Part shown: positions 8,080 to 30,301 of the stretch, piece by piece | Layout: each line of letters starts with the position of its first letter | Position numbering within the stretch: position 1 is the stretch's first letter | From: a virus | Taxonomy: Duplodnaviria; Caudoviricetes | Virus record (IMG/VR): IMGVR_UViG_3300028602_000002 | Span: 1 to 64,000 of that record | Reading direction: 5' to 3' (one strand) | Length of the DNA: 64,000 nt | Translations under genes and position numbers: made by a program | The notes under the pieces: generated by a model | Told to the model about the DNA's origin: nothing | The model's database searches: none | The model's input: only the letters and a program-made list of their open reading frames with translations

Positions 8080-8091
8080 AGAAAACAAAAT

Positions 8092-8177: not shown

Positions 8178-8208
8178 AATATTTTTAGTAAATGAAAGGA
8201 GTATAGTT

Positions 8209-8622
8209 ATGTTACCTGTAAATCCAGCATTTAGATCACATGTAGCTGTTATAGATCAAATAATGCGAGACTATTTTAATGGCTTTGCTGAAGTTAAACA
8301 GATTGAGGTTATAGACTTAGAAGATGGCATTGAGAAAGTAATTTTCAATGATCCAGCAACTATTGTTATCTTCAAAGATGGCACTAAAATTGTTGTTAAG
8401 ACAACTGATGGTGATGAATTTCAGCCTGAAATAGGTTTTGCTATGGCTATGATGAAAGCTGTTTTTGGTAGTCGTGGTTCTTACAAGAAGTGGATTAAGC
8501 AATGGTTACCACAGGGAGAAGAAGATGATTATGATTTTGCAGTAAAACCATTTATTTCCCCTTCAATGGAAGACATTGGTAAAGAAACTCAATTAAGTTT
8601 ACCAAGAGAAAAGCGGGCATAG
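8209..8622 (+). CDS. conserved phage hypothetical protein
   Basis: IEKVIFNDPATIVIFKDGTK motif; stop lies inside tRNA-Gly. Confidence 0.8.
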   Translation: MLPVNPAFRSHVAVIDQIMRDYFNGFAEVKQIEVIDLEDGIEKVIFNDPATIVIFKDGTKIVVKTTDGDEFQPEIGFAMAMMKAVFGSRGSYKKWIKQWLPQGEEDDYDFAVKPFISPSMEDIGKETQLSLPREKRA

Positions 8623-8686
8623 TTTAAAGGTAAAATCTCTGGCTTCCAACCAGATTATAAGGGTTCGATTCCCTTTGTCCGCCCCA
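8613..8686 (+). tRNA. tRNA-Gly(TCC)
   Basis: loop CTTCCAA, T-arm, CCA. Confidence 0.95.
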
Positions 8687-8688
8687 AT

Positions 8689-8766
8689 AGCGGGATGGAG
8701 CAGTCAGGTCAGCTCGTCAGATTCATATTCTGAAGGTCGTGGGTTCGAATCCCACTCCCGCGACCA
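8689..8766 (+). tRNA. tRNA-Met(CAT), initiator-like acceptor end
   Basis: loop TTCATAT, unpaired 1:72, CCA. Confidence 0.9.
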
Positions 8767-8814
8767 AGAAAATTAGGAGGATTTTCCTCAATCAATTATA
8801 TGGAGGCGATTTTT

Positions 8815-8955
8815 ATGGAAAAGTTAAAAGAATTAGTTGATCAAGCTGTTGAAGAAGCAGAAAAATTAGAAGAGGTTGCTTTTGCTAGACATATACAACA
8901 TACTTTAAAAAGAGCACAGGATTTTATCCAAAGAGTTTTAGAAAGACAAGAATAA
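8815..8955 (+). CDS. 46-aa hypothetical protein
   Basis: RBS GGAGG; ends flush with tRNA-Thr. Confidence 0.6.
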   Translation: MEKLKELVDQAVEEAEKLEEVAFARHIQHTLKRAQDFIQRVLERQE

Positions 8956-9032
8956 GCTGGGCTAGCTCAATTTGGTAGAGCAGGGCTCTTGTAAAGCTCA
9001 GGTTAGGGGTTCGATGCCTCTGCCCAGCGCCA
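8956..9032 (+). tRNA. tRNA-Thr(TGT)
   Basis: loop CTTGTAA, CCA. Confidence 0.95.
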
Positions 9033-9108
9033 TGGGGTATCGCCAAGTTGGTAAGGCGCTTGACTGTTAATCAAGTTATCGTAGGTTCGAGTCCTACTAC
9101 CCCAGCCA
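9033..9108 (+). tRNA. tRNA-Asn(GTT)
   Basis: loop CTGTTAA, CCA. Confidence 0.95.
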
Positions 9109-9319
9109 TTGGTTATAATGCAGGTATCAGCTGCTATCCTCCAGTTTTGGTCTGTTCTGGAATATGAGCTAGTGATTCATACAGAAAAACAGACATCAAG
9201 ACATGAGGGCTTAAAACGGATTCCCCGCCGTGGTCTGGGCCAGCGTTGCTGTCACATCAGCCCGAGAAAAACTTACGCCGCAAGTTTAGGGGTTTAAAGC
9301 GGCAAACAACTGAGTCAAT
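9108..9319 (+). ncRNA. unidentified ~210-nt structured RNA with a possible pseudoknot
   Basis: nested stems GTCTGTT/AACAGAC, TATGAG/TTCATA and AAACTT/AAGTTT; loop GCCGC is complementary to downstream GCGGC. Confidence 0.55.
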
Positions 9320-9704
9320 GGGAGTTATTAATATAAAATGCGTCATTTGTGATAGTGAATTTGTTTTAAATGGTAAGCAAGGTGGTCAAAATAGAATTAT
9401 TTGTTATGGTTGTTTGCCCACTGGTTTGAATAGACAAGAAAGAAATAATCGAAGACGAGAACTTTTCTATTACAAAGCACAACAAATGAAGCTGTCACTG
9501 GGATGTAGTAAGTGTGGATATAATAAGTGTGCTGCGGCTTTAGAGTGGCATCACCCATATGATAACAAGGAACATAATTTATCAACTTTGTTAAATGTTA
9601 GTTTGTCGCTGTATATGCAAGAGGTTCAAAAATGTGAACTACTATGTGCTAACTGCCATAGGGAGCATCACTTTAAAACAACGGGGTGTGGCGCAATTTG
9701 GTAG
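9318..9704 (+). CDS. HNH homing endonuclease
   Basis: CSKCGY...LEWHH...C.LLCANCHREHH; start uncertain; stop lies inside tRNA-Pro. Confidence 0.85.
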   Translation: MGVINIKCVICDSEFVLNGKQGGQNRIICYGCLPTGLNRQERNNRRRELFYYKAQQMKLSLGCSKCGYNKCAAALEWHHPYDNKEHNLSTLLNVSLSLYMQEVQKCELLCANCHREHHFKTTGCGAIW

Positions 9705-9758
9705 CGCACTACATTTGGGATGTAGGGGCTGCAGGTTCAAATCCTGTCACTCCGACCA
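9682..9758 (+). tRNA. tRNA-Pro(TGG)
   Basis: loop TTTGGGA, CCA. Confidence 0.95.
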
Positions 9759-9773
9759 CTTAGTTTAATCGCT

Positions 9774-10369
9774 CTTTAATAACTTCATAATTAATTGTAA
9801 ATTCAACTCAGTGAAGAAGGGTTTGTCAGCCCTGCTGAGATGCATCGGAAAGTGTGTGATTCTTGATTGGGATACTGATCAGGATAGCATTTTTGTGGCT
9901 GTGAAGTCATGGGAGAAGGAACAAAGTTCCAACACTAAGATGTAGTTCTGTGTAGCCTATTCGACTTAAATCACAAGACTCATGGCAGCGACAATAGACG
10001 CCCAGATGGGAAGAATCCAGATAGACTACAAGCATGGTAGCTAGAGTCAATGTCTGGAAACACCAATTAAGCTGTTGGCGATGAACCTGAGAAATCAGGG
10101 TATAACATGAGAACTTGGTACGAGTAGCCCAGCCGCCCACAATCAATTACATGATAGTTGGGGTAATGCCCAAGAAGAATATTAATTCTGAAGGCGGGTG
10201 AAAGTTGGAGGTAATCAATCCTCTGTAGTCTTGGGTCTTATGACCGGGGTAAGAAAGTTAGGGGTAGCTCCCCGAAGCTCAGGCTTATTTCACTACTGGA
10301 TGAATAAAGAGGGTAGGAGCATGGGAAGGCGAAGGTCTGAATTTACAATTAATTATGGAGTTATTAAGG
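9774..10369 (+). ncRNA. ROOL-like large structured RNA (~595 nt)
   Basis: 32-bp terminal helix (9774-9805 with 10338-10369), many internal hairpins, no credible ORF; size and tRNA-cluster context fit ROOL. Confidence 0.75.
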
Positions 10370-10402
10370 ATTAACTTTTCAGGTAATGTAGGAGTTGATT
10401 TA

Positions 10403-10561
10403 ATGGGAAAACCTAAAAAACATAAAAGGAAAGGTCCAAAATCAACAAGAGCAGGTTGCCTTTTGTGTAAACCACATAAAAGACAAGGAGTAATTACACC
10501 AACTGTTCAGGAGTTTAAAGCAATAGAAAGAGAAAAGGAAATGCGGGGGTATATACCGTAA
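10403..10561 (+). CDS. small basic protein (CLLCKPHK)
   Basis: RBS GGAG; stop lies inside tRNA-Tyr. Confidence 0.65.
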   Translation: MGKPKKHKRKGPKSTRAGCLLCKPHKRQGVITPTVQEFKAIEREKEMRGYIP

Positions 10562-10631
10562 GTGGGAGCGGGTCTGACTGTAAATCAGATGTCGAAAGGC
10601 TCGGGTGGTTCGACTCCATCTGCCCCCACCA
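10545..10631 (+). tRNA. tRNA-Tyr(GTA)
   Basis: loop CTGTAAA, long variable arm, CCA. Confidence 0.9.
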
Positions 10632-10741
10632 GATATTAATAGTGGGGACGCTATGAACATTTTTTTAATTATATGATAAATGGAAATGATAGTCATAAGC
10701 GTCCCTACTTTTTTCTAAAAAAAGATCAAAAGGAGAACATA

Positions 10742-11371
10742 ATGCCAACAGAAATTCGTTATCAAAGCTGGGATGGCGGTAGTGGTGTAAATGATAAACA
10801 GACTTTAATTGGATATTGTAAAGAAGATCCTAAAGAAGTGTTAAAGAAGGTTTATAAAGAGTATTTTATTAATCGCTATAAAGATTTATACCGCCCTGTT
10901 GACTATAATTTTCCTAATAATGTAGCTGGTTTAGTTATAAAAGAGATAACATTTAATGAGGTTCCTGGTTGTCAAATTACGGGAACATTGGAAGATCTAG
11001 ATTTAAGTATTGCTAAAGGTAAAAATTTAAATCGAGATAGAAAATCTTTTAGAGATGCACTTGAGAATGCTATTAAATGGCATACTTCCTATATAGATGG
11101 AACACTATCTGATCGCTATGTGGCTCAAGTTCAGGAAGTTAAAGAAGTAACTCTTAATGAAGATTTACAAAAGTATTTTGGTATTTATGACAATGGATAT
11201 GATGATGTTTATTATGTAGAATTGTTAGCCAAAACAAAACAGGAAGCAGTTGATATGTTTAAGCAATACTTAGAAATTGAATGTCAAGAAGATTTACTTA
11301 TTAATAAGGGAAACCTTACTGTAATTCATTCATCAGCTTTTGATTTTACTTTAAAACAAAAGGGAGAATGA
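10742..11371 (+). CDS. hypothetical protein
   Basis: RBS AAGGAG upstream of ATG 10742. Confidence 0.7.
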   Translation: MPTEIRYQSWDGGSGVNDKQTLIGYCKEDPKEVLKKVYKEYFINRYKDLYRPVDYNFPNNVAGLVIKEITFNEVPGCQITGTLEDLDLSIAKGKNLNRDRKSFRDALENAIKWHTSYIDGTLSDRYVAQVQEVKEVTLNEDLQKYFGIYDNGYDDVYYVELLAKTKQEAVDMFKQYLEIECQEDLLINKGNLTVIHSSAFDFTLKQKGE

Positions 11372-11547
11372 GTAGAATGTTTGAGAATGATATTACAAAA
11401 TGTGCAAATGAAGAATGTAAAATTAAAAATAGCTGTTTTAGATATACTTGTAAACCAGATTCTCACTGGCAATCTTATGCTATTTTCAACACTGAATTAA
11501 ATGATATATGTGATTTTTTTATAGATAACAAAAATGTGGTGGCTTAG
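11368..11547 (+). CDS. 59-aa Cys-rich protein (DITKC..C...C.RY)
   Basis: ATGA overlap with the upstream gene; stop lies inside tRNA-Ile. Confidence 0.65.
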   Translation: MSRMFENDITKCANEECKIKNSCFRYTCKPDSHWQSYAIFNTELNDICDFFIDNKNVVA

Positions 11548-11613
11548 CATAGCTGGTAATGCAGTCCGCTGATAACGGAAAGAGGTCAGGTTCGATCCCT
11601 GAAGCCACCACCA
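11538..11613 (+). tRNA. tRNA-Ile(GAT)
   Basis: loop CTGATAA, CCA. Confidence 0.95.
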
Positions 11614-11638
11614 TTATTTTTTTTGGAGGAGAAGTAAA

Positions 11639-12079
11639 ATGCCAGTAGTAATTAGTCAATTTAAAGGTCAGTATAGTTTTTTGAGTAACTTCCATTATGC
11701 TGATGTTGAGTATGAAGAAATGAAATTTAAGAGTAGTGAGGCAGCTTTCCAAGCGGCTAAAACAGAAGACAAAGAATTAAGAAAGAAGTTTCAAACTTTA
11801 TCCCCAAGTCAAGCTAAGAAATTAGGAAGAAGAATTCCTTTGAGAGAAGATTGGGAAGATGTTAAAGTTGCAATAATGGAAGAGATTGTAATGAATAAAT
11901 TCACACAAAATATTGGTCTTAAAGAACAATTATTAGAAACTAAAGATGCTATTTTAATAGAGGGAAACTGGTGGCATGATGATTTTTGGGGAGTGGATAT
12001 TGAAAGTGGATTTGGATTGAATCGTTTGGGATTGATTCTAATGAAAGTTCGTGACAACCTACAGAATAGGAGTGAATAA
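11639..12079 (+). CDS. NADAR (YbiA-like) ADP-ribose hydrolase
   Basis: FLSNF, SEAAFQAAK, AKKLGR, KFTQN, D.FWG and N.LG.ILM motifs. Confidence 0.9.
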   Translation: MPVVISQFKGQYSFLSNFHYADVEYEEMKFKSSEAAFQAAKTEDKELRKKFQTLSPSQAKKLGRRIPLREDWEDVKVAIMEEIVMNKFTQNIGLKEQLLETKDAILIEGNWWHDDFWGVDIESGFGLNRLGLILMKVRDNLQNRSE

Positions 12080-12084
12080 TACTA

Positions 12085-12297
12085 ATGCAAGATAGTATGT
12101 TTTTATATGGTTTTATTAATTATCCTGAATTTAGTGGAGCTGTATGGAATACACCAAATGGTAAGATAGTAGTTTGTCATGGTAAATTAAATCTTAATAA
12201 CAATCTATCAATAAAAGATGCAGAAGGAAATGATGTAGCTGATATAGACTTAAGGAATACTTTAATGAATATATTGAAATTGAGTATAATTTTCTAA
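12085..12297 (+). CDS. hypothetical protein
   Basis: RBS and ORF. Confidence 0.55.
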   Translation: MQDSMFLYGFINYPEFSGAVWNTPNGKIVVCHGKLNLNNNLSIKDAEGNDVADIDLRNTLMNILKLSIIF

Positions 12298-12320
12298 TCC
12301 TTAACTAAGGGGGTTAGAAG

Positions 12321-12560
12321 ATGAGTAGAAGCTATAAGAAAACTCCGATAATAAAGAGTACTTCACCTATTTACAGAAGATTTATGAAAAAACAAGCTAA
12401 TAGAAAAGTTAGAAGAACAGATAATATTCCTAATTTTATGCAGTTTAAAAAAGTTTTTCCTTCTTGGGGTATTCATGATTATGTTAGTTTATGTCCAAGG
12501 GAAGATAAACCTCATTGGATGACTGATGACTATTGGGAGAAATGTTATCTGAGGAAGTAA
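12321..12560 (+). CDS. small basic protein (MSRSYKKTP...)
   Basis: KKQANRKVRR and W.I.DY motifs. Confidence 0.75.
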   Translation: MSRSYKKTPIIKSTSPIYRRFMKKQANRKVRRTDNIPNFMQFKKVFPSWGIHDYVSLCPREDKPHWMTDDYWEKCYLRK

Positions 12561-12563
12561 TAC

Positions 12564-12638
12564 GGGGTATTAGTTTAGTGGTAAAATACCAGGTTGTCGC
12601 CCTGGAGTCAGGGGTTCAATTCCCCCTATATCCCGCCA
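12564..12638 (+). tRNA. tRNA-Asp(GTC)
   Basis: CCAGG/CCTGG stem with loop TTGTCGC, CCA. Confidence 0.9.
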
Positions 12639-12668
12639 CTAATTTAAAAGAGTGAAAGGAGCATATTT

Positions 12669-12989
12669 ATGATTTTTGATGATGAAGTTAAAGGTACGGA
12701 ATTTGAGGAGTATTATGAACTAGCTATTCTCATTGGGCAGTTGATTAATGCGGGAATTAAAGAAGGTCAAGTTGAAGAATTAGTTGAACCATTCTTTTAC
12801 TTAGTAGAAGAAATGTATCGTGTATCTATGAATTCTGATATTGCTAGATTATCAGCCCAAATGTATAAAGAGAAATATGAAGCTTACTTGGACGCTGGAT
12901 TTGATCATGATCAATCTTTTAAATTATTAATAGCAGACAGGCAAGATTTTTCAAGGAATATTTCTAACTTAAGTAAGGTAAAAAAATAA
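12669..12989 (+). CDS. hypothetical protein
   Basis: RBS AAGGAG. Confidence 0.7.
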   Translation: MIFDDEVKGTEFEEYYELAILIGQLINAGIKEGQVEELVEPFFYLVEEMYRVSMNSDIARLSAQMYKEKYEAYLDAGFDHDQSFKLLIADRQDFSRNISNLSKVKK

Positions 12990-12990
12990 T

Positions 12991-13067
12991 GGAGTTGGTA
13001 GCTTAATTGGTAGAGCGCCAGATTGTGGCTCTGGTCTGTGCGGGTTCGAGTCCCGTCCTTCTCCCCA
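12991..13067 (+). tRNA. tRNA-His(GTG)
   Basis: G-1/C73, loop TTGTGGC, CCA; two U:U mismatches in the acceptor stem. Confidence 0.9.
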
Positions 13068-13077
13068 ATATTTTTCC

Positions 13078-13106
13078 TTGACAAATCTAAATTTTTATGA
13101 TATAAT
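13078..13106 (+). promoter_or_regulatory. sigmaA-type promoter
   Basis: TTGACA-17-TATAAT followed by ATATATAG. Confidence 0.9.
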
Positions 13107-13140
13107 ATATATAGAAAGTAGAAAAAAGGAGAATAAGCCA

Positions 13141-13217
13141 GAGGGTGAAGCTCAAAAGGCAGTAGCAGCGGACTTTTAATCCGTCGGTTGTGGGTTCGAT
13201 CCCCACCGCCCTCACCA
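13141..13217 (+). tRNA. tRNA-Lys(TTT)
   Basis: loop CTTTTAA, CCA. Confidence 0.95.
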
Positions 13218-19690: not shown

Positions 19691-20062
19691 ACGCGAAAGC
19701 CCATTATGGAATGTTGTACCAACGCACACAAGTTGTGTTAATCCATGTTAACAATGTTACGCTTTGCGTATTACTGCCGCTTAAACTCTCTCTCTTGCTT
19801 AGCTTACACAGCTCATTTCACAGCTCGCACTAGCGGCTCTATAACAACATAGCTTGCAACCGCACTATTAAGGGCGGCGATGGCTTGTGAATTTTTCCAG
19901 AGCTGGAATTTACTGGGAATGACGGAGCTATATGGGTAAAAATTCGCAGATTTTACCCATGTCCCAACGATATGGGTAAAAATTACGCATATTATAAACT
20001 GGTAAAATTGGAATTGTATGGGAATGACGGCAGAATTTCCAGTTACTTACAGAAAAAACTTC

Positions 20063-20091
20063 TTGACAGCTCCGCGGTTTCATGGTATAAT
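20063..20091 (+). promoter_or_regulatory. sigmaA-type promoter
   Basis: TTGACA-17-TATAAT. Confidence 0.9.
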
Positions 20092-20122
20092 AGATATATA
20101 AAGGATGAGAGGGGCGGTCATA

Positions 20123-20656
20123 GTGTATCCTTGGAATACTTCTCTTGCTACATACTTGAATTTAAGTCGAGAGAGAGATGTTAGTAATACTGATAGGCAA
20201 GAATATAACTGCGGCGGATTCGCTTTAGAAACTTTCTCTTGGTATATTCCTTATGATGGTGATGAGTATTTTGAGTTGGTTGACTATTATGATGAGGATT
20301 TATCATTAGTTACAGAACATTGTGTTAATCATATGTTGAATGAGGTGCCAGGGTTAAGACTAATTAACGCAGTCAGTGATGCACGAAAAGATGAAAAAGT
20401 TGTGTTATTTAGAGTTGGACCTTTTGATTTTCACTATGTGAAATATGAAAATGGTGAGTATCTTCATAAGGTTGGTTCCACTCCTATCCTTCCTATGTCA
20501 GAAGAAGAGGTTTATAGTAGAGCTTGGTGTTATGGCAAATACAATGGTGAGATAGTAATCTTTGCACTGAAACCTGTAGATGGTAGATCTTTCCTGAAAA
20601 AAGTTCTTGACAACCTCGAGAATCTATGGTATAATATATATAGAAAGGTGAGGTGA
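20123..20656 (+). CDS. hypothetical protein with putative papain-like Cys/His motif
   Basis: YNCGGFAL, DFHYVK and HKVG; GTG start after RBS. Confidence 0.65.
   Translation: MYPWNTSLATYLNLSRERDVSNTDRQEYNCGGFALETFSWYIPYDGDEYFELVDYYDEDLSLVTEHCVNHMLNEVPGLRLINAVSDARKDEKVVLFRVGPFDFHYVKYENGEYLHKVGSTPILPMSEEEVYSRAWCYGKYNGEIVIFALKPVDGRSFLKKVLDNLENLWYNIYRKVR
20607..20635 (+). promoter_or_regulatory. sigmaA-type promoter upstream of the mini-tmRNA cassette
   Basis: TTGACA-17-TATAAT followed by ATATATAG. Confidence 0.9.
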
Positions 20657-20663
20657 GCATGTT

Positions 20664-20828
20664 ATGAAAGCGGAAATTTTGAAGGTGATAGCGGCTGAAA
20701 TGAATGAGGCTGAGCGTAAAGCAGATGCGGCGGTTGATAAAGGTGAGATGGATGTTCATCGTTTTCATGCTGGAGCGTTTCATGCTCTTCAGAATTTATA
20801 TACCAGAGTGGTAAGAATACCGTTATAA
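20664..20828 (+). CDS. 54-aa hypothetical protein
   Basis: RBS GAGGTG; ends 2 nt before the mini-tmRNA. Confidence 0.65.
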   Translation: MKAEILKVIAAEMNEAERKADAAVDKGEMDVHRFHAGAFHALQNLYTRVVRIPL

Positions 20829-20830
20829 AT

Positions 20831-20911
20831 GGGGCTGACGGGTGTCGTCAGGTGGAAAATCTCCTACGGAGCCTCACCTGAACCTGGGTTCAACTCCCAG
20901 CAGCTCCACCA
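20831..20911 (+). ncRNA. minimal tmRNA-like RNA (tRNA-like domain only)
   Basis: GGGGCTG/CAGCTCC-A-CCA acceptor with G3:U70, stemless D-loop, CAGGTG/CACCTG helix, T-arm CTGGG-TTCAACT-CCCAG; no anticodon arm or tag ORF. Confidence 0.75.
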
Positions 20912-20918
20912 GATATTA

Positions 20919-21031
20919 GGGGAGAGGGAAAAAGGGATTATATTACCGCCAGCAAACCAGCATCCCTGAGCCGTACGGCGACAGCCAATGGGTAATTCCA
21001 GAGGAGCACTGTTAGGCTGGCTAATCTCCCC
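20919..21031 (+). ncRNA. unidentified 113-nt structured RNA
   Basis: GGGGAGA/TCTCCCC closing stem, GGGAT/ATCCC, GCCG/CGGC, CAGCC/GGCTG; possible loop pairing ATTACC/GGTAAT. Confidence 0.6.
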
Positions 21032-21048
21032 ATTTAAGGAGGATTAAT

Positions 21049-21324
21049 ATGGATTATAAAGATTGTCGTGATTGTTATTATTTACTTTCTATTGATTGTG
21101 TTCCTCATTGTGTTTTAGCAGATAAAGTTATCAGTGAAGTGGAGCGTTGTCCTGAAACTAAAGAGGAGCCTAATGAGATTAAGTTTGAGATTTATTTCAG
21201 TGACTTGAACTATGAAGCTCAGAAGCAAATGCTTGAAACGTTTGGTCAGGATTTTGTTAAAGAGGGGAATTATGATGCTTTTCCTCTGGTTGAATACATT
21301 CAATATAAAAATCCTGATTTGTAA
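21049..21324 (+). CDS. hypothetical protein
   Basis: RBS AGGAGG; Cys-rich N-terminus. Confidence 0.7.
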   Translation: MDYKDCRDCYYLLSIDCVPHCVLADKVISEVERCPETKEEPNEIKFEIYFSDLNYEAQKQMLETFGQDFVKEGNYDAFPLVEYIQYKNPDL

Positions 21325-21345
21325 TTAAATCCCAGAAAATACTTC

Positions 21346-21374
21346 TTGACAACCCCTGAAATTCGTGATATAAT
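21346..21374 (+). promoter_or_regulatory. sigmaA-type promoter
   Basis: TTGACA-17-TATAAT. Confidence 0.9.
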
Positions 21375-21408
21375 AAATATAGAAAAAAGAAAAGGAGGCT
21401 TTACCCCA

Positions 21409-21696
21409 ATGGCTAAGAAAGAAAAGAAAGTTGAACTGAGGGACGTGCTGAGGAAGGAAATCGCTGTGCTTCTGATGGAAGCCAAGGGTCTCACTGAGAT
21501 CGGTAGGACTAAGGAAGGTCTGGTTGTAACTGAAGGCGAACAAGACCTGGTGATCAGGGTTATCCAGAAGAAAGACAAAGTGGAAAAGAAAGACATCGTG
21601 GAAGTCATCACTCTGGATGAAGCCGAAGCCGAAGGTGAAGATGAAGGCGAAACTGAAGATGAAGCCGAGGGCGATTCCGAGGATGAAGCTCAGTAG
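21409..21696 (+). CDS. unknown small protein with acidic tail (paralogue 1 of 3)
   Basis: GRTKEGL..VIRVIQKK motif; own promoter and terminator. Confidence 0.85.
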   Translation: MAKKEKKVELRDVLRKEIAVLLMEAKGLTEIGRTKEGLVVTEGEQDLVIRVIQKKDKVEKKDIVEVITLDEAEAEGEDEGETEDEAEGDSEDEAQ

Positions 21697-21702
21697 AGTG
21701 AG

Positions 21703-21741
21703 AAAGAGGGCGGATGAAGACGTGCCGCCTTCTTTTTCTTT
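21703..21741 (+). terminator. intrinsic terminator
   Basis: AGAGGGCGG/CCGCCTTCT hairpin plus T tract. Confidence 0.75.
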
Positions 21742-21890
21742 CCTGTTGTTTCCATAATTTTACAGCTCTTCCACAGCTCGCCATATATTCCAAAATATGG
21801 AAGCGGGCTGTTCGTCATTCCCTATTCTTTTTTCTTTTGGAATTGTGTGGAAATGACGGACGCCTGGAAAATAGTGGTAAAAAATACTTC

Positions 21891-21919
21891 TTGACAAAAC
21901 CACGGATTTTTGATATAAT
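21891..21919 (+). promoter_or_regulatory. sigmaA-type promoter
   Basis: TTGACA-17-TATAAT. Confidence 0.9.
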
Positions 21920-21948
21920 ATATATAATGAAAGAAAGGGGAGGATAAC

Positions 21949-22218
21949 ATGGCTGGTGGCTTCTGGGATAGTGAAAAGGTATTGAGGGACGTTCCCAAAG
22001 TTGGAACCAAGTCGACATTCTACCGTTTTAAGGAAGTGAAGAAAGGTAACAAGAAGTATATTGACGTGCGGGAACACTTCATTAAGGCGGATGGAACTGA
22101 GCAATATACTTCCAAAGGAACTGCCATTCCTGTTGATGGTTTTGAAGACTTCCTGATTGCAGTCAGAGATATTGGTGAATTCCTGAAAAGTGGCGAGATG
22201 CCTAAGGATTTGGGGTAG
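21949..22218 (+). CDS. PC4/YdbC-like single-stranded nucleic-acid-binding protein
   Basis: KYIDVREHF....G....TSKGTAIP motif. Confidence 0.8.
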   Translation: MAGGFWDSEKVLRDVPKVGTKSTFYRFKEVKKGNKKYIDVREHFIKADGTEQYTSKGTAIPVDGFEDFLIAVRDIGEFLKSGEMPKDLG

Positions 22219-22372
22219 CCATCCGCTACTGTGAAGGGGAGAAGGTTAAGACAACTACTTTGGAAGATCTATCCAAACAAGTGGAGTCATATTTGGCGAT
22301 GAAGCTTCCCAGTTGTCTTTCTCCTCAGGATATAATTGAGATTGCAAACTTGATTGATTATCGTGAAAGAAT

Positions 22373-22499
22373 TGGCGGACGCCAGGGGTAAGGCGTGCCT
22401 GAGTGGGAGTGGTTACCGGCCGTAGACCACAGGTAGGGCGAGCAGAGTGTTAAAACCCTAAAGGATAGCTGTTCAAGTAGGTTCGAAACCTACCCGCCA
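22373..22499 (+). ncRNA. tRNA-like RNA with an expanded central domain
   Basis: TGGCGG/CCGCCA stem, D-like hairpin ACGCC/GGCGT, T-arm GTAGG-TTCGAAA-CCTAC, two extra stems, no anticodon loop. Confidence 0.65.
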
Positions 22500-22504
22500 G
22501 AAGA

Positions 22505-22533
22505 AAGGAGAGCGTAAATGCTCTCCTTTTTTT
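22505..22533 (+). terminator. intrinsic terminator
   Basis: AAGGAGAGC/GCTCTCCTT plus T tract. Confidence 0.85.
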
Positions 22534-22754
22534 ATATATTTTTACAGCTCGCACAGCTTACCAAATAAGGTAATATATGGAATCCTGTTTTGAATTTGTT
22601 TGTGAAACTGGTAAATATGGAATCTTTTGGAAATGACGGAGTTTTCCATTTTATGGTAGAAAAGGAAAACTCTAACTGTTCCGCCATTGACATTCATTTC
22701 CAAATCTGGGATAAAAAACTTTTTTGAAATCTCCTAATTATTTCCAAAAAAGAC

Positions 22755-22783
22755 TTGCAATCCCAACTGATTTGTGGTATAAT
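22755..22783 (+). promoter_or_regulatory. sigmaA-type promoter
   Basis: TTGCAA-17-TATAAT with extended TG. Confidence 0.8.
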
Positions 22784-22816
22784 TATTATAGTAAGAAAAA
22801 GGAGGCGTTACCCCTA

Positions 22817-23098
22817 ATGGTAGAAAAAGGTAAGGAAAAAAAAGTAACTGCAAGGGAAACCCTGAGAACTGTTATCGCTGGATTGCTGATGGATGAATTT
22901 GGTTTGGAAAAGATTGGCAGGACTAAAGAGGGTTTGCTGGTAAGAACTGGTGATGAGGATCTGATTGTCAGGGTTATCCTGAAAAAGAATAAGGTGGAAG
23001 CAAAAGACATTGTGGAAACCATTGCCAGGAAAGATGCGGCAGTAGTGGAAGAAGAAGTAGAAGTGGAAGAAGATGGAGAAGAGGAAGATGCTGGTTGA
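22817..23098 (+). CDS. unknown small protein with acidic tail (paralogue 2 of 3)
   Basis: GRTKEGL..IVRVILKK motif; RBS AAGGAGG. Confidence 0.85.
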   Translation: MVEKGKEKKVTARETLRTVIAGLLMDEFGLEKIGRTKEGLLVRTGDEDLIVRVILKKNKVEAKDIVETIARKDAAVVEEEVEVEEDGEEEDAG

Positions 23099-23127
23099 GA
23101 GGGGAGAAATCCCCTCTCCTTTTTTTT
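23097..23127 (+). terminator. intrinsic terminator
   Basis: GAGAGGGGA/TCCCCTCTC plus T8. Confidence 0.85.
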
Positions 23128-23420
23128 ACCATGTCTTCCAAATTTTTCTAAGTTTTACAGCTCGCACCATCTTTTCCAAAATTTTCCTGTGTTTCCACAG
23201 CTCACCAGCTCTTACAGCTCGCACCTTATTTGGTAAAATTTGGGAGTGGTTTAAATTGGAAATGACGGCTGACACAGCTCGCAGGGGCGTTAAAAAAAGG
23301 GAAAACATGTAAGAAATTGGGAATGACGGAAATCCATAAATAGAATTATTTGGTAATGACGGAGGATTTCTGGAAGAATTTGGAAATTCCGTCATTGTAA
23401 ATCATTTCCATTTCTATTGT

Positions 23421-23449
23421 AAAAAAAAAGAGGATTACTCCTCTTTTTT
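23421..23449. terminator. terminator at the convergence of + and - transcription
   Basis: A9-GAGGA...TCCTC-T6 hairpin. Confidence 0.7.
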
Positions 23450-23587
23450 GTAACATGTGGTATAAAGTGCTTCTGCTTCTGGAGTGCGACATTTATCACA
23501 ATATTCTCCATTATCACAAGGACGATTACCAGTCCATGGATCTGGTTGACAGAAGTTTTCATTTAACATTTTTTCCCATTGTGTCAT
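23435..23587 (-). CDS. 50-aa Cys-containing hypothetical protein
   Basis: RBS GGAGG and promoter TTGACT-17-TATAAT at 23642-23614. Confidence 0.65.
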   Translation of the reverse strand: MTQWEKMLNENFCQPDPWTGNRPCDNGEYCDKCRTPEAEALYTTCYKKEE

Positions 23588-23951
23588 ATAATTTCCCTCC
23601 TCTCACTATAACCATTATATCACTTTTAGACTGGAAAGTCAATATCAAAATTGGAAAATGTTGAACTGTATTTTATTCCCTGAAATGGAAATAGTTGGGA
23701 ATGACGGAAGTCAAAAAAAAAGGAAAGTCTTGGAAGACTTTCCATTTATATGAAACTGGAGGTGTGTTTTACATGAAATCCCACATCTTGGCATTAATTT
23801 CCGCAATCACATCTTTTAGGTGTTCTTTACAGAAACCTGCATTTCTGGGAGGAAGTTCCATGCCACATCTTTTACAGTAATCTTTTGGTCTTAGTAAATT
23901 ATAAATTCTCAGGATAAATCTGGGAAACATGGAATCATCCTTTCTAAAATA

Positions 23952-24026
23952 TGGTGTGTCTGGGAGGAGTTGAACCTCCATAACACGGTTTAAAAGACCG
24001 GTATTTTACCATTAAATTACAGACCC
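23952..24026 (-). tRNA. second tRNA-Lys(TTT), slightly degenerate
   Basis: minus-strand cloverleaf, loop CTTTTAA, CCA; G2:A71 mismatch. Confidence 0.85.
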
Positions 24027-24034
24027 GTATGTAT

Positions 24035-24170
24035 CAGCATGGAGTCCAGTACTTTGGGAATAATTCCCAAGCTGGCGTGGCTTGGTGTCACAGTCGGGGA
24101 GTAGAAAGGACACCTACCAGTTTTTTACTTCCTTCACATTCCCCTAATTCCGTGAAGGAAAACCATGCTG
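24035..24170 (-). ncRNA. unidentified four-way-junction RNA
   Basis: CAGCATGG/CCATGCTG closing stem plus TTCCTTCAC/GTGAAGGAA, GGTGTC/GACACC and TTGGGAA/TTCCCAA; strand inferred from neighbouring genes. Confidence 0.6.
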
Positions 24171-24216
24171 TATCAGGAAAGGATAGGGAGGGCAGGGACA
24201 CCCTCCCTGTCAGGAA

Positions 24217-24456
24217 TCACTTGTAAGCGACGTAGCGGAAACTTCCATCTTCTTGTAGGGCGTATTCTCCAACTGCATCTTCGGGCTCATTTTTCTTTTT
24301 GATAACACGGATGATAAAGGTATCTTCATCTACTTCATAGCGTAGCCCTTCTTTGTGGCGAACGATTTTATCTCCATCTACTCCACGATTAATCAGGTCA
24401 GCAGCGATTTGCTCGTAAACCTCATCCCGCACTTCCACCTTTTTCTCTTTTGCCAT
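24217..24456 (-). CDS. unknown small protein (paralogue 3 of 3)
   Basis: MAKEKKVEVRD...RHKEGL...IIRVIKKK. Confidence 0.85.
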   Translation of the reverse strand: MAKEKKVEVRDEVYEQIAADLINRGVDGDKIVRHKEGLRYEVDEDTFIIRVIKKKNEPEDAVGEYALQEDGSFRYVAYK

Positions 24457-24503
24457 AAAATTGTCACACTCCTTTTTTATTTTTTCTCTCTCTTTCTAAA
24501 ACC

Positions 24504-24626
24504 ATTATATCATGGTTTCACTGGTTTGTCAAGAACTTTTTTTTGGAATCTTTTCCCATCCCTCCCGTTCCCATTGTTTCCCTCACCTTCTAAATACATT
24601 ATATCACGAAACCGCTGGAATTGCAA
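24504..24626 (-). promoter_or_regulatory. two tandem sigmaA-type promoters
   Basis: TTGACA-17-TATAAT (24532-24504) and TTGCAA-17-TATAAT (24626-24598). Confidence 0.85.
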
Positions 24627-24665
24627 TACCAAAAATGGAAATTTTTATGAGAAAAAAGAAAAAAA

Positions 24666-25043
24666 ATAATTCAGAAAATTTTGATTTTTACAGCTCACAC
24701 CAAATTTACCATATATTGGGTTGGAATTTACTGGAAATCCCAAGGAACTTTTTGGAAATGGCGGAAACACAGCTCGCAAAATTGACAGCTCACACCAAAT
24801 TTGGAAATAACTGGAAATGGAATTTACTGGAAATCCCAGGAAGAAAATGGAAAATCAGAATAGTCTGAAAATTCTGGATTGGAATTAATTGGAAATGACG
24901 GAAGTTTTAAAATTCTGACAATTCTGACAAATTCCGTCATCGTATAACAATGACATTTCTGGAAAAAACTGGAAATCCTGTAACTGGAAATGTTTGGAAA
25001 TGACGGAATTCTATGAAAAAGAAATCTGAATATTCTGACTATT
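24666..25043. promoter_or_regulatory. cluster of CodY-box-like sites
   Basis: 15-mers with 2-3 mismatches to AATTTTCWGAAAATT at 24666, 24859, 24909 and 25029. Confidence 0.5.
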
Positions 25044-25049
25044 TAAAAT

Positions 25050-25081
25050 AAAAAAAGGGAAATATTTCTATTTCCCTTTTT
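25050..25081 (-). terminator. intrinsic terminator
   Basis: AGGGAAATA/TATTTCCCT hairpin flanked by A and T tracts. Confidence 0.7.
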
Positions 25082-25174
25082 CAAACCAATTGTAAATTAA
25101 TTCCATTATGGAAACAAGAATTACGAAACCAGCACCATAACACCATAATAAAATTATTCCTTCAATAATCATTA

Positions 25175-25468
25175 TTAATTATCCTCCTTTCTGGTATAAT
25201 AGAATCTGTAGTAAATGATAAGAATTATTAGAATTAAAATTATTGTAAATGACATTGAAACTATAATGATAAGAATTATCCCGTAACCATTAACTGCCAT
25301 GTAAATTCCATATATTGACTTAAATCCATTTCCTACCAGAATCATGAAGAATGTGGTTAAATTCAATCCTTTTACATTTTTGGTAATTATTACCTGTGTA
25401 ATTTGTGGTAGCGCCGCGAATGTTAAAAGGATACCTCCTAATAATTGGAAAACTTCTGGTGTTGTCAT
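25175..25468 (-). CDS. PQ-loop/SemiSWEET-family small transporter
   Basis: GGILL..AALPQI...K.V.GL, three TM segments. Confidence 0.8.
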   Translation of the reverse strand: MTTPEVFQLLGGILLTFAALPQITQVIITKNVKGLNLTTFFMILVGNGFKSIYGIYMAVNGYGIILIIIVSMSFTIILILIILIIYYRFYYTRKEDN

Positions 25469-25521
25469 TTGATAAACCCTCTTAATTGATAATTATTATT
25501 AAAGGAGAAGAAGGGGCAGTA

Positions 25522-26184
25522 TTACCTGCCCCTGTTTACTTTGCGCCATGGATGGGCGACTAATTCGTTGCGGATAATTCTTTTCTTTTGACGTAGTACC
25601 TCCTGTAATATTCTTGCTTCAATTTCTGCATCCTCTAGTGCCGTGTGTGTTTCCATAAACTGGTAATTACCTGTAATGTATCTGTAAGCAATTTCTGCAC
25701 TGGTGCGGATATTTCCTTTTTCTGTCAACCAATTTTGTTCTATTGCAATTCTCTTAAATCTTTTTTGCTGGAAAAGACTGTCACAGGAAGCGTTCCATAA
25801 ATCAAAGTATTCATAAGGTTTTTCCAGAAAATTCCTGCCAGAATTTGTCTGCTCTAATGTTTGCTTCATTGCCGACATATCAAACTGTAAGTTATAGGCA
25901 GTAATGGTAGTAACTTCCATTTTTTCCAGTATTTCGTTAAATTCCTTTTTTGCTTGTGCGAATGTTACCACAGGAAGCCCGCTGTAAAATACTGGAATTT
26001 TTTCGCCATAGTAGGCAATTTTTTCAATCCCAGGAATTTCCAGTATTTCCTTTATTCTCCATCGCCACATTGCCAGTGGTCTGCCAGTTTTTTCCACTAT
26101 AACCATTCCCAGGTCATATACCCATTTTTTGGAAACCCCGATTGTTTCAGTATCAAATACGCAGTAAACTTTTTTCTTTATCAT
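25522..26184 (-). CDS. DEDDh 3'-5' exonuclease (DnaQ-like)
   Basis: FDTET, AYN..FD and HTALEDA motifs. Confidence 0.9.
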   Translation of the reverse strand: MIKKKVYCVFDTETIGVSKKWVYDLGMVIVEKTGRPLAMWRWRIKEILEIPGIEKIAYYGEKIPVFYSGLPVVTFAQAKKEFNEILEKMEVTTITAYNLQFDMSAMKQTLEQTNSGRNFLEKPYEYFDLWNASCDSLFQQKRFKRIAIEQNWLTEKGNIRTSAEIAYRYITGNYQFMETHTALEDAEIEARILQEVLRQKKRIIRNELVAHPWRKVNRGR

Positions 26185-26233
26185 TTAATAACATCTCCTT
26201 ATTAATAATGATTATTGGAAAGGATAGCAGGAA

Positions 26234-26764
26234 TTAAATCCTGCCATCCTTTTCCAGTTTTTCCAGTAATTGGAAAATCTCGTTATGCTGTTTAATTCCT
26301 ATTCCCTGATAATGTTTATTATATCCCCTTCTGAAGCAAACTGCAATTCCTTCTTGTTTGCTCCATGCTGTTAAGTGAGAAACATTATCGTCTACCAATA
26401 CCCTGCCAGGTCCTGCCAATAACCATTTGTCAAAAGTATATATTCTTTTGTATCGTGGAATGTAAGGGAAAAAAGTATCTAACCAATAATTTTTCTCGTC
26501 TATGCTGGAAGGTCTGGGCATCGGCTGACTAAGAATTCTTACATCATAACCATTATTAACTAACCTTTTGAGTACTGAATTCGCCCGCTGAATAATTGTT
26601 AAATCTTGGAAAAAACCTTCTGTATTCAATTTGGCAGTTATTTCCATTTGCTCTTGCTCATTTTTTGGCTCATATTCTTTAATACGCCCGCTGTAAATTC
26701 CTGTAAGTTTTTTGTGCATTTCAGCGATAGTATTATCCATATCATAAAATACTAACTTTTTCAT
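26234..26764 (-). CDS. 5'(3')-deoxyribonucleotidase (NT5C, HAD family)
   Basis: YDMDNT, K..WL and LVDD motifs. Confidence 0.85.
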   Translation of the reverse strand: MKKLVFYDMDNTIAEMHKKLTGIYSGRIKEYEPKNEQEQMEITAKLNTEGFFQDLTIIQRANSVLKRLVNNGYDVRILSQPMPRPSSIDEKNYWLDTFFPYIPRYKRIYTFDKWLLAGPGRVLVDDNVSHLTAWSKQEGIAVCFRRGYNKHYQGIGIKQHNEIFQLLEKLEKDGRI

Positions 26765-26936
26765 AATAATTATTCTCCTTTCAAGGGACTGCCAGTATTG
26801 ACAGCCCCTCATTTGATAATGTTTCTTACATGAAAAGCTTTGCTACATGGAAAGCAAGCACGACCCAACCAATAAAGACAACAAATCCAGCGATAGCGAT
26901 CATTACTTGACACCTCCTGTCAGTTGATAATCTTTA

Positions 26937-27536
26937 TTACTTCTGTTTTTTGTAGCGAATGTGTACGCACTCCTCATTTTTTCCTGCCCTAGTGCGAATC
27001 TCAAAATATAGTCCTTGCCAGATATAATCAAAAGCATCTTCTTTATCAATTAATAATAATTCTCCGTTATCTACATCCAGTAAATGTGTTGCTTGTGCGA
27101 AGGGGTCTGCCTGATAAGTGCTAGTACCTTCAAATAAGAAGTATTGGATAATTTCTCTCCAATCTTCTTTATTGTCGGCTAATAAATGTAATGGTATAGT
27201 TCTTTTTGTTACTTGATAATATTTCTCCATTGCGTCAAGTACTGGGTGTATATCCAGCATTTCCCTTTTTGCTAATATTTCCCAATTCCGTACTGGTACC
27301 ATATTAACAATAGAAGCCCTGTTGCTTTTAGTAGACTTTATTTGTAAACGATAATTATTATTTACTGTTACGTCTACTTTGCTTTTAGTAGTTGCTCCGA
27401 AGTGATAAAGATTATTAATTGCGATTGTTTCAACGTGTCCTTTTAAATTCTTTACTTGAAAAGAATTTCCTGCTTTTTCCAGCATTTCTATTATACGCAA
27501 TTCTGCATCCTTTCCTTTATTTCCCAAAATAAACAC
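26937..27536 (-). CDS. PD-(D/E)XK-like nuclease, restriction-endonuclease-like
   Basis: G...E N-terminal helix and KVD...LQIKS motif. Confidence 0.55.
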   Translation of the reverse strand: MFILGNKGKDAELRIIEMLEKAGNSFQVKNLKGHVETIAINNLYHFGATTKSKVDVTVNNNYRLQIKSTKSNRASIVNMVPVRNWEILAKREMLDIHPVLDAMEKYYQVTKRTIPLHLLADNKEDWREIIQYFLFEGTSTYQADPFAQATHLLDVDNGELLLIDKEDAFDYIWQGLYFEIRTRAGKNEECVHIRYKKQK

Positions 27537-27560
27537 CTCCAGTTATTTGTTGATAATGGT

Positions 27561-27652
27561 TCTTACTTGCCAGCTTTTCCCTTATGCCCTGCCGGTCCTC
27601 GTGGTGGTACGATCGGGACTCGTTCGCGCCGGGAAAAACTCTCTTATTAAGT
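27561..27652 (-). ncRNA. GC-rich structured leader RNA
   Basis: AGCTTTTCCC/GGGAAAAACT closing stem and GTCC.TCGT/ACGA.GGAC inner stem, directly after a promoter. Confidence 0.45.
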
Positions 27653-27661
27653 TCTATAATA

Positions 27662-27690
27662 ATACTATCACAGTATAACAGAAGTGTCAA
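27662..27690 (-). promoter_or_regulatory. sigmaA-type promoter
   Basis: TTGACA-17-TAGTAT with extended TG. Confidence 0.75.
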
Positions 27691-27729
27691 TGTCAAAAAA
27701 TGGAAATGAGGCGGGTTTTTAAAAGTTCT

Positions 27730-27764
27730 AATCTTCTGAATTTTCTGACAATATAGGGGGGGGG
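27730..27764. other. tandem CodY-like site and G9 tract at the strand switch (candidate genome terminus/packaging site)
   Basis: AATCTTCTGAATTTTCTGACAATA then GGGGGGGGG, between divergent promoters. Confidence 0.4.
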
Positions 27765-27869
27765 TAGTTTAGTGTAAAAAATTTCCAGAATTGTCATTTT
27801 TTGGGTATCCCACCAACTCCAAACTCCCATGAGTAGTTTTGTCCTCCGAGCCATGTGTCTGCACATCCC

Positions 27870-27898
27870 TTGACAAAACAGGATTTATGTGGTATAAT
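27870..27898 (+). promoter_or_regulatory. sigmaA-type promoter (last consensus one seen in the window)
   Basis: TTGACA-17-TATAAT followed by ATATATAG. Confidence 0.9.
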
Positions 27899-28509
27899 AT
27901 ATATAGGAATGACGGGAATAGAAAACATAGCTAATAGGAAGGGGTGATAAAGTGGCTTTTATAAAAGAAATAATATTTGTATTAGGCTACCTAACAGGAA
28001 TACTACTATTAGACTACTACGCCTACGAGATTAACACAGTCAGTTTCTTTTTTGGGATGGTTACAATGTATATATTACTAAGACTGGTGAGTATAACATA
28101 TGAAGAGAGGGGAAGGAGAGAATGAGCAGCAAGATTGCGGACTATCGCATAATGGTAGAGGGCTTTGAAGCGGCTATTAAGAATTATGAAAAAGCGATAA
28201 TTGACGCAACTAGAGGGCTAGAATACTATAAGCGGCTAATAGAGAAGCATCAAGAAGAGGAAACAGAAGGGGAGTAGTTACACTATTCCCCTATCTAGTA
28301 TGAGACAGGATAAGAAAGGAGGGGAAGGATGTTGAGTAATAAAAGCGAACTTCTTGGTATAATAAGACTAATATTAGGAATGGAATTAATAGAGTATGAG
28401 GATAAAATTTTCTTAGCCTATGATAATAAGAGAAGAAGTGAAGAGAAGATAAAGATGTTGCGGGAAGCTCTCTTCTTAGTTGAAACAAGCGAGTAAAGGA
28501 GGATTTATA

Positions 28510-29101: not shown

Positions 29102-30301
29102 TTGATGATAGGTCAAAATACAGCTGAGATTATGAAATTATCACAGCAACTAGATTTTTCTATTGCAGACACAAAAGAGAGAATATCTCTGTTGTATGAT
29201 TTGCTAATGGAATATAATAAAGCGACAAAAGAGTGGTTACCAAATCTCTTTTTAACTGAGTACTTTGAGAAGTACTATAACCCGCACATAAAGCAAGCTC
29301 AACCCCAATCCCATAAGTTACCAGTTTGTTATAACTTAAATTATATGGCGGGATATATACTTTTTAATAAGGATCAGACTAATGTGAATGTGATAAGAGA
29401 AAAAACTCAAAAGTATAGAGATACTAAACATGTATCTCTTGAACAGACAATGGAGGAACAAGGAGAAGAATCAATTAAACCAGCGGAAACATCTTATTTG
29501 CGGGCTAGACCAACTGTCACAGAACAAGATGTAAAGGATATTCCTGAACTTCAAGGATATAGTGATTATATAGAAGCGGTTAAATTGCTTATTGATAAGG
29601 AAGAAAATGAAAGAGAGAAATATAAATTAAGGCAAATATTAAAAGAAGTGCGACAAGATCAGTTGGCCGCTAAACTTGCATTGCAAAAACCTATTAATTT
29701 TACTCGCCTTACTCCTACATATTCCCTTATAAATTACTATGAGGATACTGGATATGGAATGGACAATTATGAGTATAAGCAGGTTTCTTTTAATAAGATA
29801 GAATTATCAGAGCCATCTCATGTATCTAATCTATTGAAATTCTATTCTGATTTGCGGCATCATAGTTATGATGATACTCAATCTGATATTAGATATATTT
29901 TAGATACCCTTGATGATTTAATAGAAGAAGCTCCGCTTAATGAACATTTTCGCTATATCTTAATCAGAAGAATAGATGGAGAAACTTATGAGAACATTGC
30001 TTTTGAATTGCATAAAGAAATGGGTCTCAGATTATCTGCTGGATATGTCTCCTCAATCTTTTTGAATAGAATACCAGATATAATATCTAAGTATTACTTA
30101 GATAGTTTCGAAGAATGGTATTTCACCTTTAAAACAAAAGGAGACTATAAAACCTGTACTAAGTGTAAGAAGAATTTTTTAAGAAGTGATAAGTATTTTA
30201 GAAAAGATAAGAAGAGTCGAGATGGATTAAGCACTGTTTGTAAAGAGTGTAGGAAGCAACAGGATGTTGAAGCGGCTAAGAAGAGAGCTAATAGAAAATA
30301 G
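29102..30301 (+). CDS. putative DNA-binding regulator (HTH plus C-terminal zinc ribbon)
   Basis: ILIRRIDGETYENIA HTH-like segment and CTKC...CKEC. Confidence 0.6.
   Translation: MMIGQNTAEIMKLSQQLDFSIADTKERISLLYDLLMEYNKATKEWLPNLFLTEYFEKYYNPHIKQAQPQSHKLPVCYNLNYMAGYILFNKDQTNVNVIREKTQKYRDTKHVSLEQTMEEQGEESIKPAETSYLRARPTVTEQDVKDIPELQGYSDYIEAVKLLIDKEENEREKYKLRQILKEVRQDQLAAKLALQKPINFTRLTPTYSLINYYEDTGYGMDNYEYKQVSFNKIELSEPSHVSNLLKFYSDLRHHSYDDTQSDIRYILDTLDDLIEEAPLNEHFRYILIRRIDGETYENIAFELHKEMGLRLSAGYVSSIFLNRIPDIISKYYLDSFEEWYFTFKTKGDYKTCTKCKKNFLRSDKYFRKDKKSRDGLSTVCKECRKQQDVEAAKKRANRK

Follow-up and report, generated by a model that had tools for sequence, protein, structure and literature searches.

Five small early proteins of a Caudoviricetes phage: an old paralogous family of candidate nucleic-acid binders

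The p6 protein of phage phi29 is an abundant early protein whose acidic tail has been modelled as an electrostatic shield of a basic patch, and without this tail the Kd for DNA falls from 2.46 to 1.47 uM (PMC10899789). PC4-like proteins, which bind single-stranded DNA (ssDNA) (PMC7549692, PMC7145681), include one member, AcrIIA22, that is an anti-CRISPR nickase (PMC8545432). In this study, we analysed a stretch of 64,000 nucleotides (hereafter the window), positions 1 to 64,000 of the complete IMG/VR record of an uncultured soda-lake virus with a length of 115,422 bp (IMGVR_UViG_3300028602_000002; Caudoviricetes), in which three small paralogous proteins, here called P1, P2 and P3, are encoded in the neighbourhood of a PC4-like gene. 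Two further paralogues, P4 and P5, are encoded elsewhere in the same genome. Our preferred reading, to which we assign a probability of only about 0.35, is that they are abundant early nucleic-acid-binding proteins, with acidic tails that modulate the binding.

Five paralogues and their genes

The open reading frames (ORFs) of P1 (P0001), P2 (P0002) and P3 (P0003) translate to 95, 93 and 79 amino acids (aa). As a sequence-only reading of the window had claimed, they are paralogues: all pairwise BLASTP comparisons are significant, with 64% identity over 64 residues between P1 and P2 (E 5e-23), 45% identity between P1 and P3 (E 1e-8) and 42% between P2 and P3 (E 2e-8). The shared pattern quoted in that reading corresponds to the invariant columns of the three-way alignment (K4, E5, K6, K7, V8, R11, I18, A19, L21, I31, R33, K35, E36, G37, L38, R50, V51, I52, K54 and K55). 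P4 and P5, absent from that reading, were found outside the window by a profile search of the genome. The five genes and their signals are as follows.

21346..21374, plus strand: promoter of P1, TTGACA-17-TATAAT with a TG extended -10, 12/12 consensus positions
21393..21398, plus strand: ribosome binding site (RBS) of P1, AGGAGG, 10 nt before the start codon, read from the sequence
21409..21696, plus strand: P1, 95 aa, a core of ~67 aa and an acidic tail of 28 aa (net charge -16); GC content at third codon positions (GC3) 0.52
21696..21742, plus strand: terminator-like hairpin after P1, free energy -25.5 kcal/mol, z -4.35, followed by a U-rich run
22755..22783, plus strand: promoter of P2, TTGCAA-17-TATAAT with TG, 10/12
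22800..22805, plus strand: RBS of P2, AGGAGG, read from the sequence
22817..23098, plus strand: P2, 93 aa, core and an acidic tail of 24 aa (net charge -10); GC3 0.36
23097..23128, plus strand: intrinsic terminator of P2, a 9-bp stem (6 GC pairs) and a T8 run behind it
24504..24532, minus strand: promoter of P3, TTGACA-17-TATAAT with TG, 12/12
24217..24456, minus strand: P3, 79 aa, core and a C-terminal beta-hairpin in place of the acidic tail; GC3 0.40
24182..24211, minus strand: GC-rich hairpin just past the P3 stop codon, z only -0.7, without a clear U tract
G000:C1:112172-112483 (same genome), minus strand: P4, 103 aa, with a helical linker and an acidic tail; 12/12 promoter
G000:C1:111636-112055 (same genome), minus strand: P5, 139 aa, net charge +9, 35 Lys/Arg; 12/12 promoter

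Each of the three window genes was expected to have its own strong promoter, and each does, with a sigma-70-type consensus match of 12/12 for P1 and P3 and of 10/12 for P2; the promoters of all five copies score 12/12 or 10/12 and carry an extended -10. A strong RBS also accompanies each of the three genes. With a promoter, an AGGAGG RBS and a 3' terminator of their own around the ORF, P1 and P2 read as self-contained cassettes. Since the hairpin past P3 has no clear U tract, read-through from P3 towards a tRNA-Lys gene (23952-24026, minus strand) is possible. P3, a structured stretch and this tRNA follow one another on the same strand (window 23952-24456), and P5 ends 8 nt before a tRNA-Val on the same strand (G000:C1:111554-112055). 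The C-terminal half of P5 is a clear member of the family (hhalign probability 92%, E 5e-7), while its N-terminal half aligns in register but weakly (probability 13%). P5 is thus likely, but not securely, a tandem duplication, for which one half is supported.

The copies are not a product of recent amplification. In a maximum-likelihood tree, P2 forms a clade with P0009, P0015 and P0016 (support 99/93), P3 falls in a clade of 22 rows (99/97), and P4 clusters together with P0129, P0135 and P0138 (90/99); the nearest relative of P1 lies on another contig, at 83% identity. Because each of P1 to P4 is nearer to orthologues on other phage contigs than to the other copies in its own genome, the copies are old, individually maintained and differentiated. 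The proposal of the sequence-only reading that the protein is dosage-amplified therefore finds no support, as P2, P3 and P4 belong to separate supported subfamilies with closer orthologues elsewhere.

The strong promoters are a trait of the whole early region and not of the family genes alone, because the genome contains 23 perfect TTGACA-17-TATAAT promoters, which have in common the longer form TTGACAAA...TGnTATAAT-ATATATAG. Their orientation is rightward between 259 and 27870 and leftward between 113475 and 97658; two more that point leftward lie at 154 and 24532. By this divergent arrangement across the contig junction, the paralogues lie in a divergent early region of ~45 kb. Perfect consensus promoters also occur, 2-7 per locus, in all of the 11 related loci (11/11) that we fetched for comparison of context; these loci hold 18 family members, and six of them (6/11) contain two or three. 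Among the gene products of the genome are tail fibre proteins, a portal protein and a phage sigma factor, whose gene sits just past the last rightward perfect promoter.

29102-30301: phage sigma factor, phrog_5767, E 2e-50

All 25 tRNA genes of the genome, including Leu-TAG and Arg-TCT, are within the early region. A full-length ROOL RNA (RF03087, 367 bits) is located at window 9783-10357, inside a 12-tRNA array at 8003-13217.

The codon usage of the family is also distinct. P1 does use GC-ending codons, as had been claimed, with a GC3 of 0.52, CTG for 6/8 Leu codons against 3% in the bulk of the genome, and ATC for 6/6 Ile codons. GC3 is 0.40 in P3 and 0.36 in P2, compared with 0.205 +/- 0.043 across 71 long ORFs of the genome (maximum 0.364), and it is raised in the PC4-like neighbour gene as well (0.48). 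In other phages, family members often have the highest GC3 of their contig; for example, the member in locus L009 reaches 0.45 and its neighbours 0.11-0.21. The sequence-only reading had seen in the bias a possible tuning to the tRNAs of the host. Because high GC3 recurs in many homologues of other phages, the codon bias is a trait of the family, and this recurrence would favour selection over recent transfer as its cause; recent horizontal transfer as the sole source of the high GC3 was rejected for the same reason. A clean reading in which the family genes avoid codons served by the phage tRNAs was also rejected, since Leu-TAG and Arg-TCT could read CTG and AGG by wobble. The genes are probably expressed at very high levels right after infection.

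The core, the tails and the search for relatives

A word-indexed search of 5.8 billion proteins returned 87 relatives, none informatively named and three labelled only "hypothetical protein". HMMER, run exhaustively with a family profile on 1.84 billion representatives, returned 74 clusters, all of 47-142 aa. A search restricted to longer proteins gave no longer or fused forms. By these two results, the family domain always stands alone. No relatives beyond the genome of the window were found in three IMG/VR scans, and a phage DNA search and tblastn gave no match.

AlphaFold2 models built with the family alignment predict a core of ~60-65 aa, which consists of a Lys-rich N-terminal arm (KEKKV), one amphipathic helix and a sheet of three strands with the KK motif at its end. 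In the P1 model, residues 10-65 have a predicted local confidence (pLDDT) above 90, with a helix at 10-26 and strands at 38-42 and 45-49, followed by a disordered tail. The P3 model (mean pLDDT 90.2, predicted TM-score 0.71) has a helix at 9-23 and strands at 37-42 and 45-49, and adds a hairpin with strands at 63-67 and 73-77.

The sequence-only reading had called the protein unknown, and this description held: AlphaFold2 with Foldseek, together with profile searches, assigned no housekeeping family, while the alignment of the paralogues is significant. When the three proteins and the full set of 53 aligned members were scanned against Pfam, PHROGs and PADLOC, whose library comprises defence proteins and not counter-defence proteins, only scattered matches of E 0.004 or weaker appeared, none of them consistent. 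Sequence profile searches of the PDB with family alignments revealed no relatives, and Foldseek found nothing at E up to 1e-3 in the PDB with the P1 and P3 models or in BFVD with the P3 model. In the ESM Atlas, the search by features gave only viral hypothetical clusters, and the structural rows were weak and came from the Atlas's own poor model. Thus, none of these sequence and structure searches connects the core with a known relative or a matching fold.

The weak top structural rows include alpha-beta-beta-beta modules resembling type III secretion chaperones (3kxy, 1ttw). They would suit a protein that binds and modulates a host machine (RNA polymerase, a sigma factor, the ribosome or the replisome, for example), one that binds no nucleic acid and docks its basic patch on an acidic host surface. 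Many small orphan early phage proteins act in this way, T4 AsiA being an example. Moreover, a phage that brings its own sigma factor (29102-30301) must redirect the host RNA polymerase. Even so, we regard a modulator of this kind as unlikely. Far less probable still, in our judgement, is a nuclease, nickase or structure-specific DNA binder built on a degenerate or minimal PD-(D/E)XK-like module. The catalytic D...(D/E)xK motif of strands 2 and 3 was not found, a nearly invariant Ile standing two residues before K54 and the acidic residue of strand 2 being Glu36.

Conservation and charge were examined in an alignment of 53 family sequences. The twelve most conserved positions, invariant or nearly so, are K4, K7, R11, A19, R33, K35, E36, G37, L38, I52, K54 and K55, seven of which are basic (K4, K7, R11, R33, K35, K54 and K55). 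The tails behave differently. Where acidic, they are 17-44 aa long with a net charge down to -21; overall, the tails have a mean net charge of -8.2, are poorly conserved in length and sequence, and are predicted to be disordered (pLDDT 53-61). A tail net charge of -5 or lower is found in 26/53 members, and 15/53 have no tail of at least 10 aa. The two long acidic tails that had been noticed in the window are those of P1 (28 aa, net -16) and P2 (24 aa, net -10), and P3 has none. Several subtypes can be distinguished: core with acidic tail (P1, P2), core with neutral beta-hairpin (P3), core with helical linker and tail (P4), the basic tandem form (P5), and a tail-less form with an acidic Val-rich N-terminal extension, which is seen only in relatives.

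These charges bear on the suggestion of the sequence-only reading that the protein is an anti-defence protein or a nucleic-acid mimic. In the fuller form considered here, the tails would imitate nucleic acid as a counter-defence or host-takeover decoy, titrating host DNA-binding proteins such as nucleoid proteins, restriction enzymes or other defence nucleases, while the core serves as a scaffold or oligomerisation module. Such a role would match the long acidic tails and the net charge of the whole proteins (P1 -14, P2 -8 and P4 -13), as well as the immediate-early, strong-expression setting. Anti-restriction proteins such as T7 Ocr are typically immediate-early and strongly expressed. In addition, the family of the neighbouring PC4-like gene includes the anti-CRISPR AcrIIA22 (PMC8545432). 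However, the conservation lies in basic residues of the core and not in the tails, the P3 clade (22 rows) has a neutral hairpin in place of a tail, and P5 carries +9. Known DNA mimics bear their charges on a rigid folded surface, unlike the disordered tails here, and PADLOC gave no match, although it covers defence and not counter-defence proteins. Mimicry as a conserved function finds no support, given a core close to neutral, Lys or Arg at 7/12 conserved positions, the members without a tail and the basic P5; a decoy role for the tails alone is unlikely in our view.

Neighbouring genes and RNAs, and the proposed role

Several features close to P1 recur beside family members in the related loci.

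21891..21919, plus strand: promoter of the PC4-like gene, 12/12 consensus
21949..22218, plus strand: PC4-like protein, 89 aa, not a member of the family; PF02229 at E 2.2e-5 with a score of 24.3 bits, just short of the cut-off of 25
21049-21324 of the window, plus strand: Cys-rich ORF of 91 aa with CxxC-type motifs, no Pfam match
20831-20911 of the window: mini-tmRNA of 81 nt with the tRNA-like domain (TLD) only, matching only the tRNA-like ends of RF00023 at 55 bits

The PC4-like gene is directly upstream of a family member, with an overlap or less than 50 bp between them, in 4/11 related loci and adjacent in a fifth; in L006 and L014 it overlaps the downstream family gene. A small Cys-rich ORF precedes the PC4-like gene in five related loci. 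The mini-tmRNA lies ~500 nt upstream of P1, and the order mini-tmRNA, two or three tRNAs, family member recurs in four related loci (mini-tmRNA at L006:8525-8606, L008:1408-1488, L014:1654-1733 and L015:471-551), while tRNAs alone are directly upstream of a family member in two more.

This arrangement raises the question whether the family acts on RNA. An RNA-binding partner or chaperone would use the basic patch to bind the mini-tmRNA, tRNA-like RNAs or phage tRNAs so as to stabilise, deliver or sequester them, and the conserved Lys and Arg residues would suit RNA as well as DNA. The RNA genes directly upstream in the six loci, the mini-tmRNA before P1, the position of P5 8 nt before tRNA-Val and the succession of P3 and tRNA-Lys all argue for it. 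However, with all 25 tRNA genes in the early region some adjacency is expected by chance, and L007 has two family members and a PC4-like gene on 4.4 kb with no RNA gene. Further, the structure searches matched no known RNA-binding fold, and all loci come from one phage lineage, which makes linkage inseparable from shared ancestry. We consider an RNA partner of this kind unlikely, by a very small margin more so than the decoy. A bolder version, in which the family is a dedicated partner of the mini-tmRNA and tRNA-like RNAs and forms with them a new phage ribonucleoprotein system against host ribosome rescue or tRNA-targeting defences, with the PC4-like protein as third component and paralogues specialised for individual RNAs, seems to us decidedly improbable.

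Of the roles on nucleic acid, one on DNA, perhaps melted or single-stranded, is favoured because of the tight and sometimes overlapping linkage to the PC4-like gene. The sequence-only reading had offered binding of nearby repeats or RNAs as a further possibility, and the conserved basic residues together with the PC4-like and mini-tmRNA/tRNA neighbourhood would fit nucleic-acid binding of either sort. A core conserved in basic residues and joined to a polyanionic disordered segment would be typical, by analogy, of nucleic-acid binders with a self-competing tail. In the reading that we prefer, the conserved basic patch on the core would bind nucleic acid, namely DNA of the phage or the host, which may be melted or single-stranded, and binding would take place jointly with the PC4-like protein. 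The polyacidic disordered tails would shield the patch electrostatically or compete for it, so as to tune binding and to keep a protein of high abundance in solution, and the subfamilies would be specialised variants or partners in mixed oligomers. From these features we infer high abundance, nucleic-acid binding, the role of the tail and cooperation with the PC4-like protein.

Three observations weigh against this proposal. The core as a whole is approximately neutral rather than net basic (mean +0.7, range -4 to +5; -4 in P3). Pfam, PHROGs, PDB sequence and structure searches linked the core to no known DNA- or RNA-binding fold. Finally, a neighbourhood kept within one phage lineage may reflect shared ancestry and not shared function.

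The AATGACGG and ACAGCTC motifs of this region are each found in only 7/11 of the related loci with the family. In the genome, AATGACGG has a strong polarity and occurs almost only at 19.9-27.9 kb; it extends to TGGAAnnnnnTGG(G/A)AATGACGG(A), with 13/14 genome copies on the plus strand and 12/14 at 19.9-27.9 kb (window 19918-27915). Copies of ACAGCTC(G/A)CAC sit just past terminators. An early protein of 183 aa with a conserved YNCGGFA motif is encoded at window 20105-20656 on the plus strand, its sole Pfam match being weak (Hisat_C, E 0.002), and a homologue lies beside the family at L006:9342-9860 (E 7e-76).

By contig name, 7/11 related loci come from soda-lake sediment, and the other four names state no habitat. 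Labels of metagenome-assembled genomes (MAGs) were considered as a guide to the host and rejected, since L012-L016, contigs of 2.8-5.7 kb, are binned to five phyla from the same sediment samples (Gammaproteobacteria, Opitutia, Spirochaetaceae, Bacteroidales and Mollicutes). These loci are probably mis-binned phage fragments.

Comparison with phi29 p6 and other small nucleic-acid-binding or acidic proteins

The closest phage analogue of the family is phi29 p6, likewise a small early phage protein, of ~100 aa, with a compact alpha+beta core, a basic patch, which in the family is putative, and a disordered Asp/Glu C-terminal tail (PMC10899789). A tail of this type is present in P1, P2 and P4 and absent in P3 and the tail-less clade. 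The topologies differ, however: p6 is beta1-beta2-beta3-alpha1-beta4-alpha2 (PMC10899789), whereas the family is predicted to be alpha1-beta-beta-beta with an optional extra hairpin, and its AlphaFold2 models place the helix first and then 3-5 strands, unlike the p6 fold. No p6 chain was among the structural matches of the family models. Profile searches of all PDB chain sequences, in which p6 chains are assumed to be included on the basis of the 2024 structure paper, gave only two unrelated rows at E 0.36-0.52 with one alignment and none at E up to 10 with another. Because of the different topology and the lack of sequence similarity in these searches, the resemblance to p6 is one of analogy, not of membership. 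Moreover, p6 is a single gene, whereas the family here comprises five old paralogues, some of them tail-less, and DNA binding has been demonstrated for p6 but is predicted for the family.

PC4-like proteins (PF02229; the PC4-like protein of phage T5, YdbC and AcrIIA22) are, like the family, small, phage-encoded and found in early or hypervariable regions. The PC4 unit is beta-beta-beta-beta-alpha (PMC7549692), in contrast to the helix-first order of the family, and 0/53 members match PF02229 at E up to 1. In the order of its elements, the family bears a superficial likeness to the double-stranded RNA-binding domain (dsRBD; alpha-beta-beta-beta-alpha). Neither the Pfam matches nor the 50 best rows of each structural search contained a dsRBD.

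Single-stranded DNA-binding proteins (SSBs) with an acidic C-terminal tail, such as bacterial SSB, T7 gp2.5 and T4 gp32, resemble the family in the combination of core and tail. The SSB-type tail competes with DNA and recruits partners. Unlike these proteins, the family has no OB fold and a much smaller core, and in place of the conserved acidic-hydrophobic tip its tail ends vary (...DEAQ, ...EDAG, ...FEAA). The DNA mimics T7 Ocr and ArdA share with the family an immediate-early position, strong expression, which is predicted here, and a very acidic overall composition (P1 -14). In the mimics, however, the negative charge forms an array on a rigid folded surface; in the family the core averages +0.7, the negative charge is in disordered, variable tails that many members lack, and the conserved residues are basic.

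Because no structural relative of the core can be recognised, solving its structure by experiment would probably reveal a new small fold. Short, easily expressed and with good predicted folding, the proteins make these hypotheses cheap to test. If the proposed mechanism is true, the family would represent a second, unrelated solution to the design of p6, a tiny abundant early protein with an acidic tail that tunes its binding, and one that has branched out into five maintained paralogues, with ties to a PC4-like protein and an unusual mini-tmRNA/tRNA cluster.

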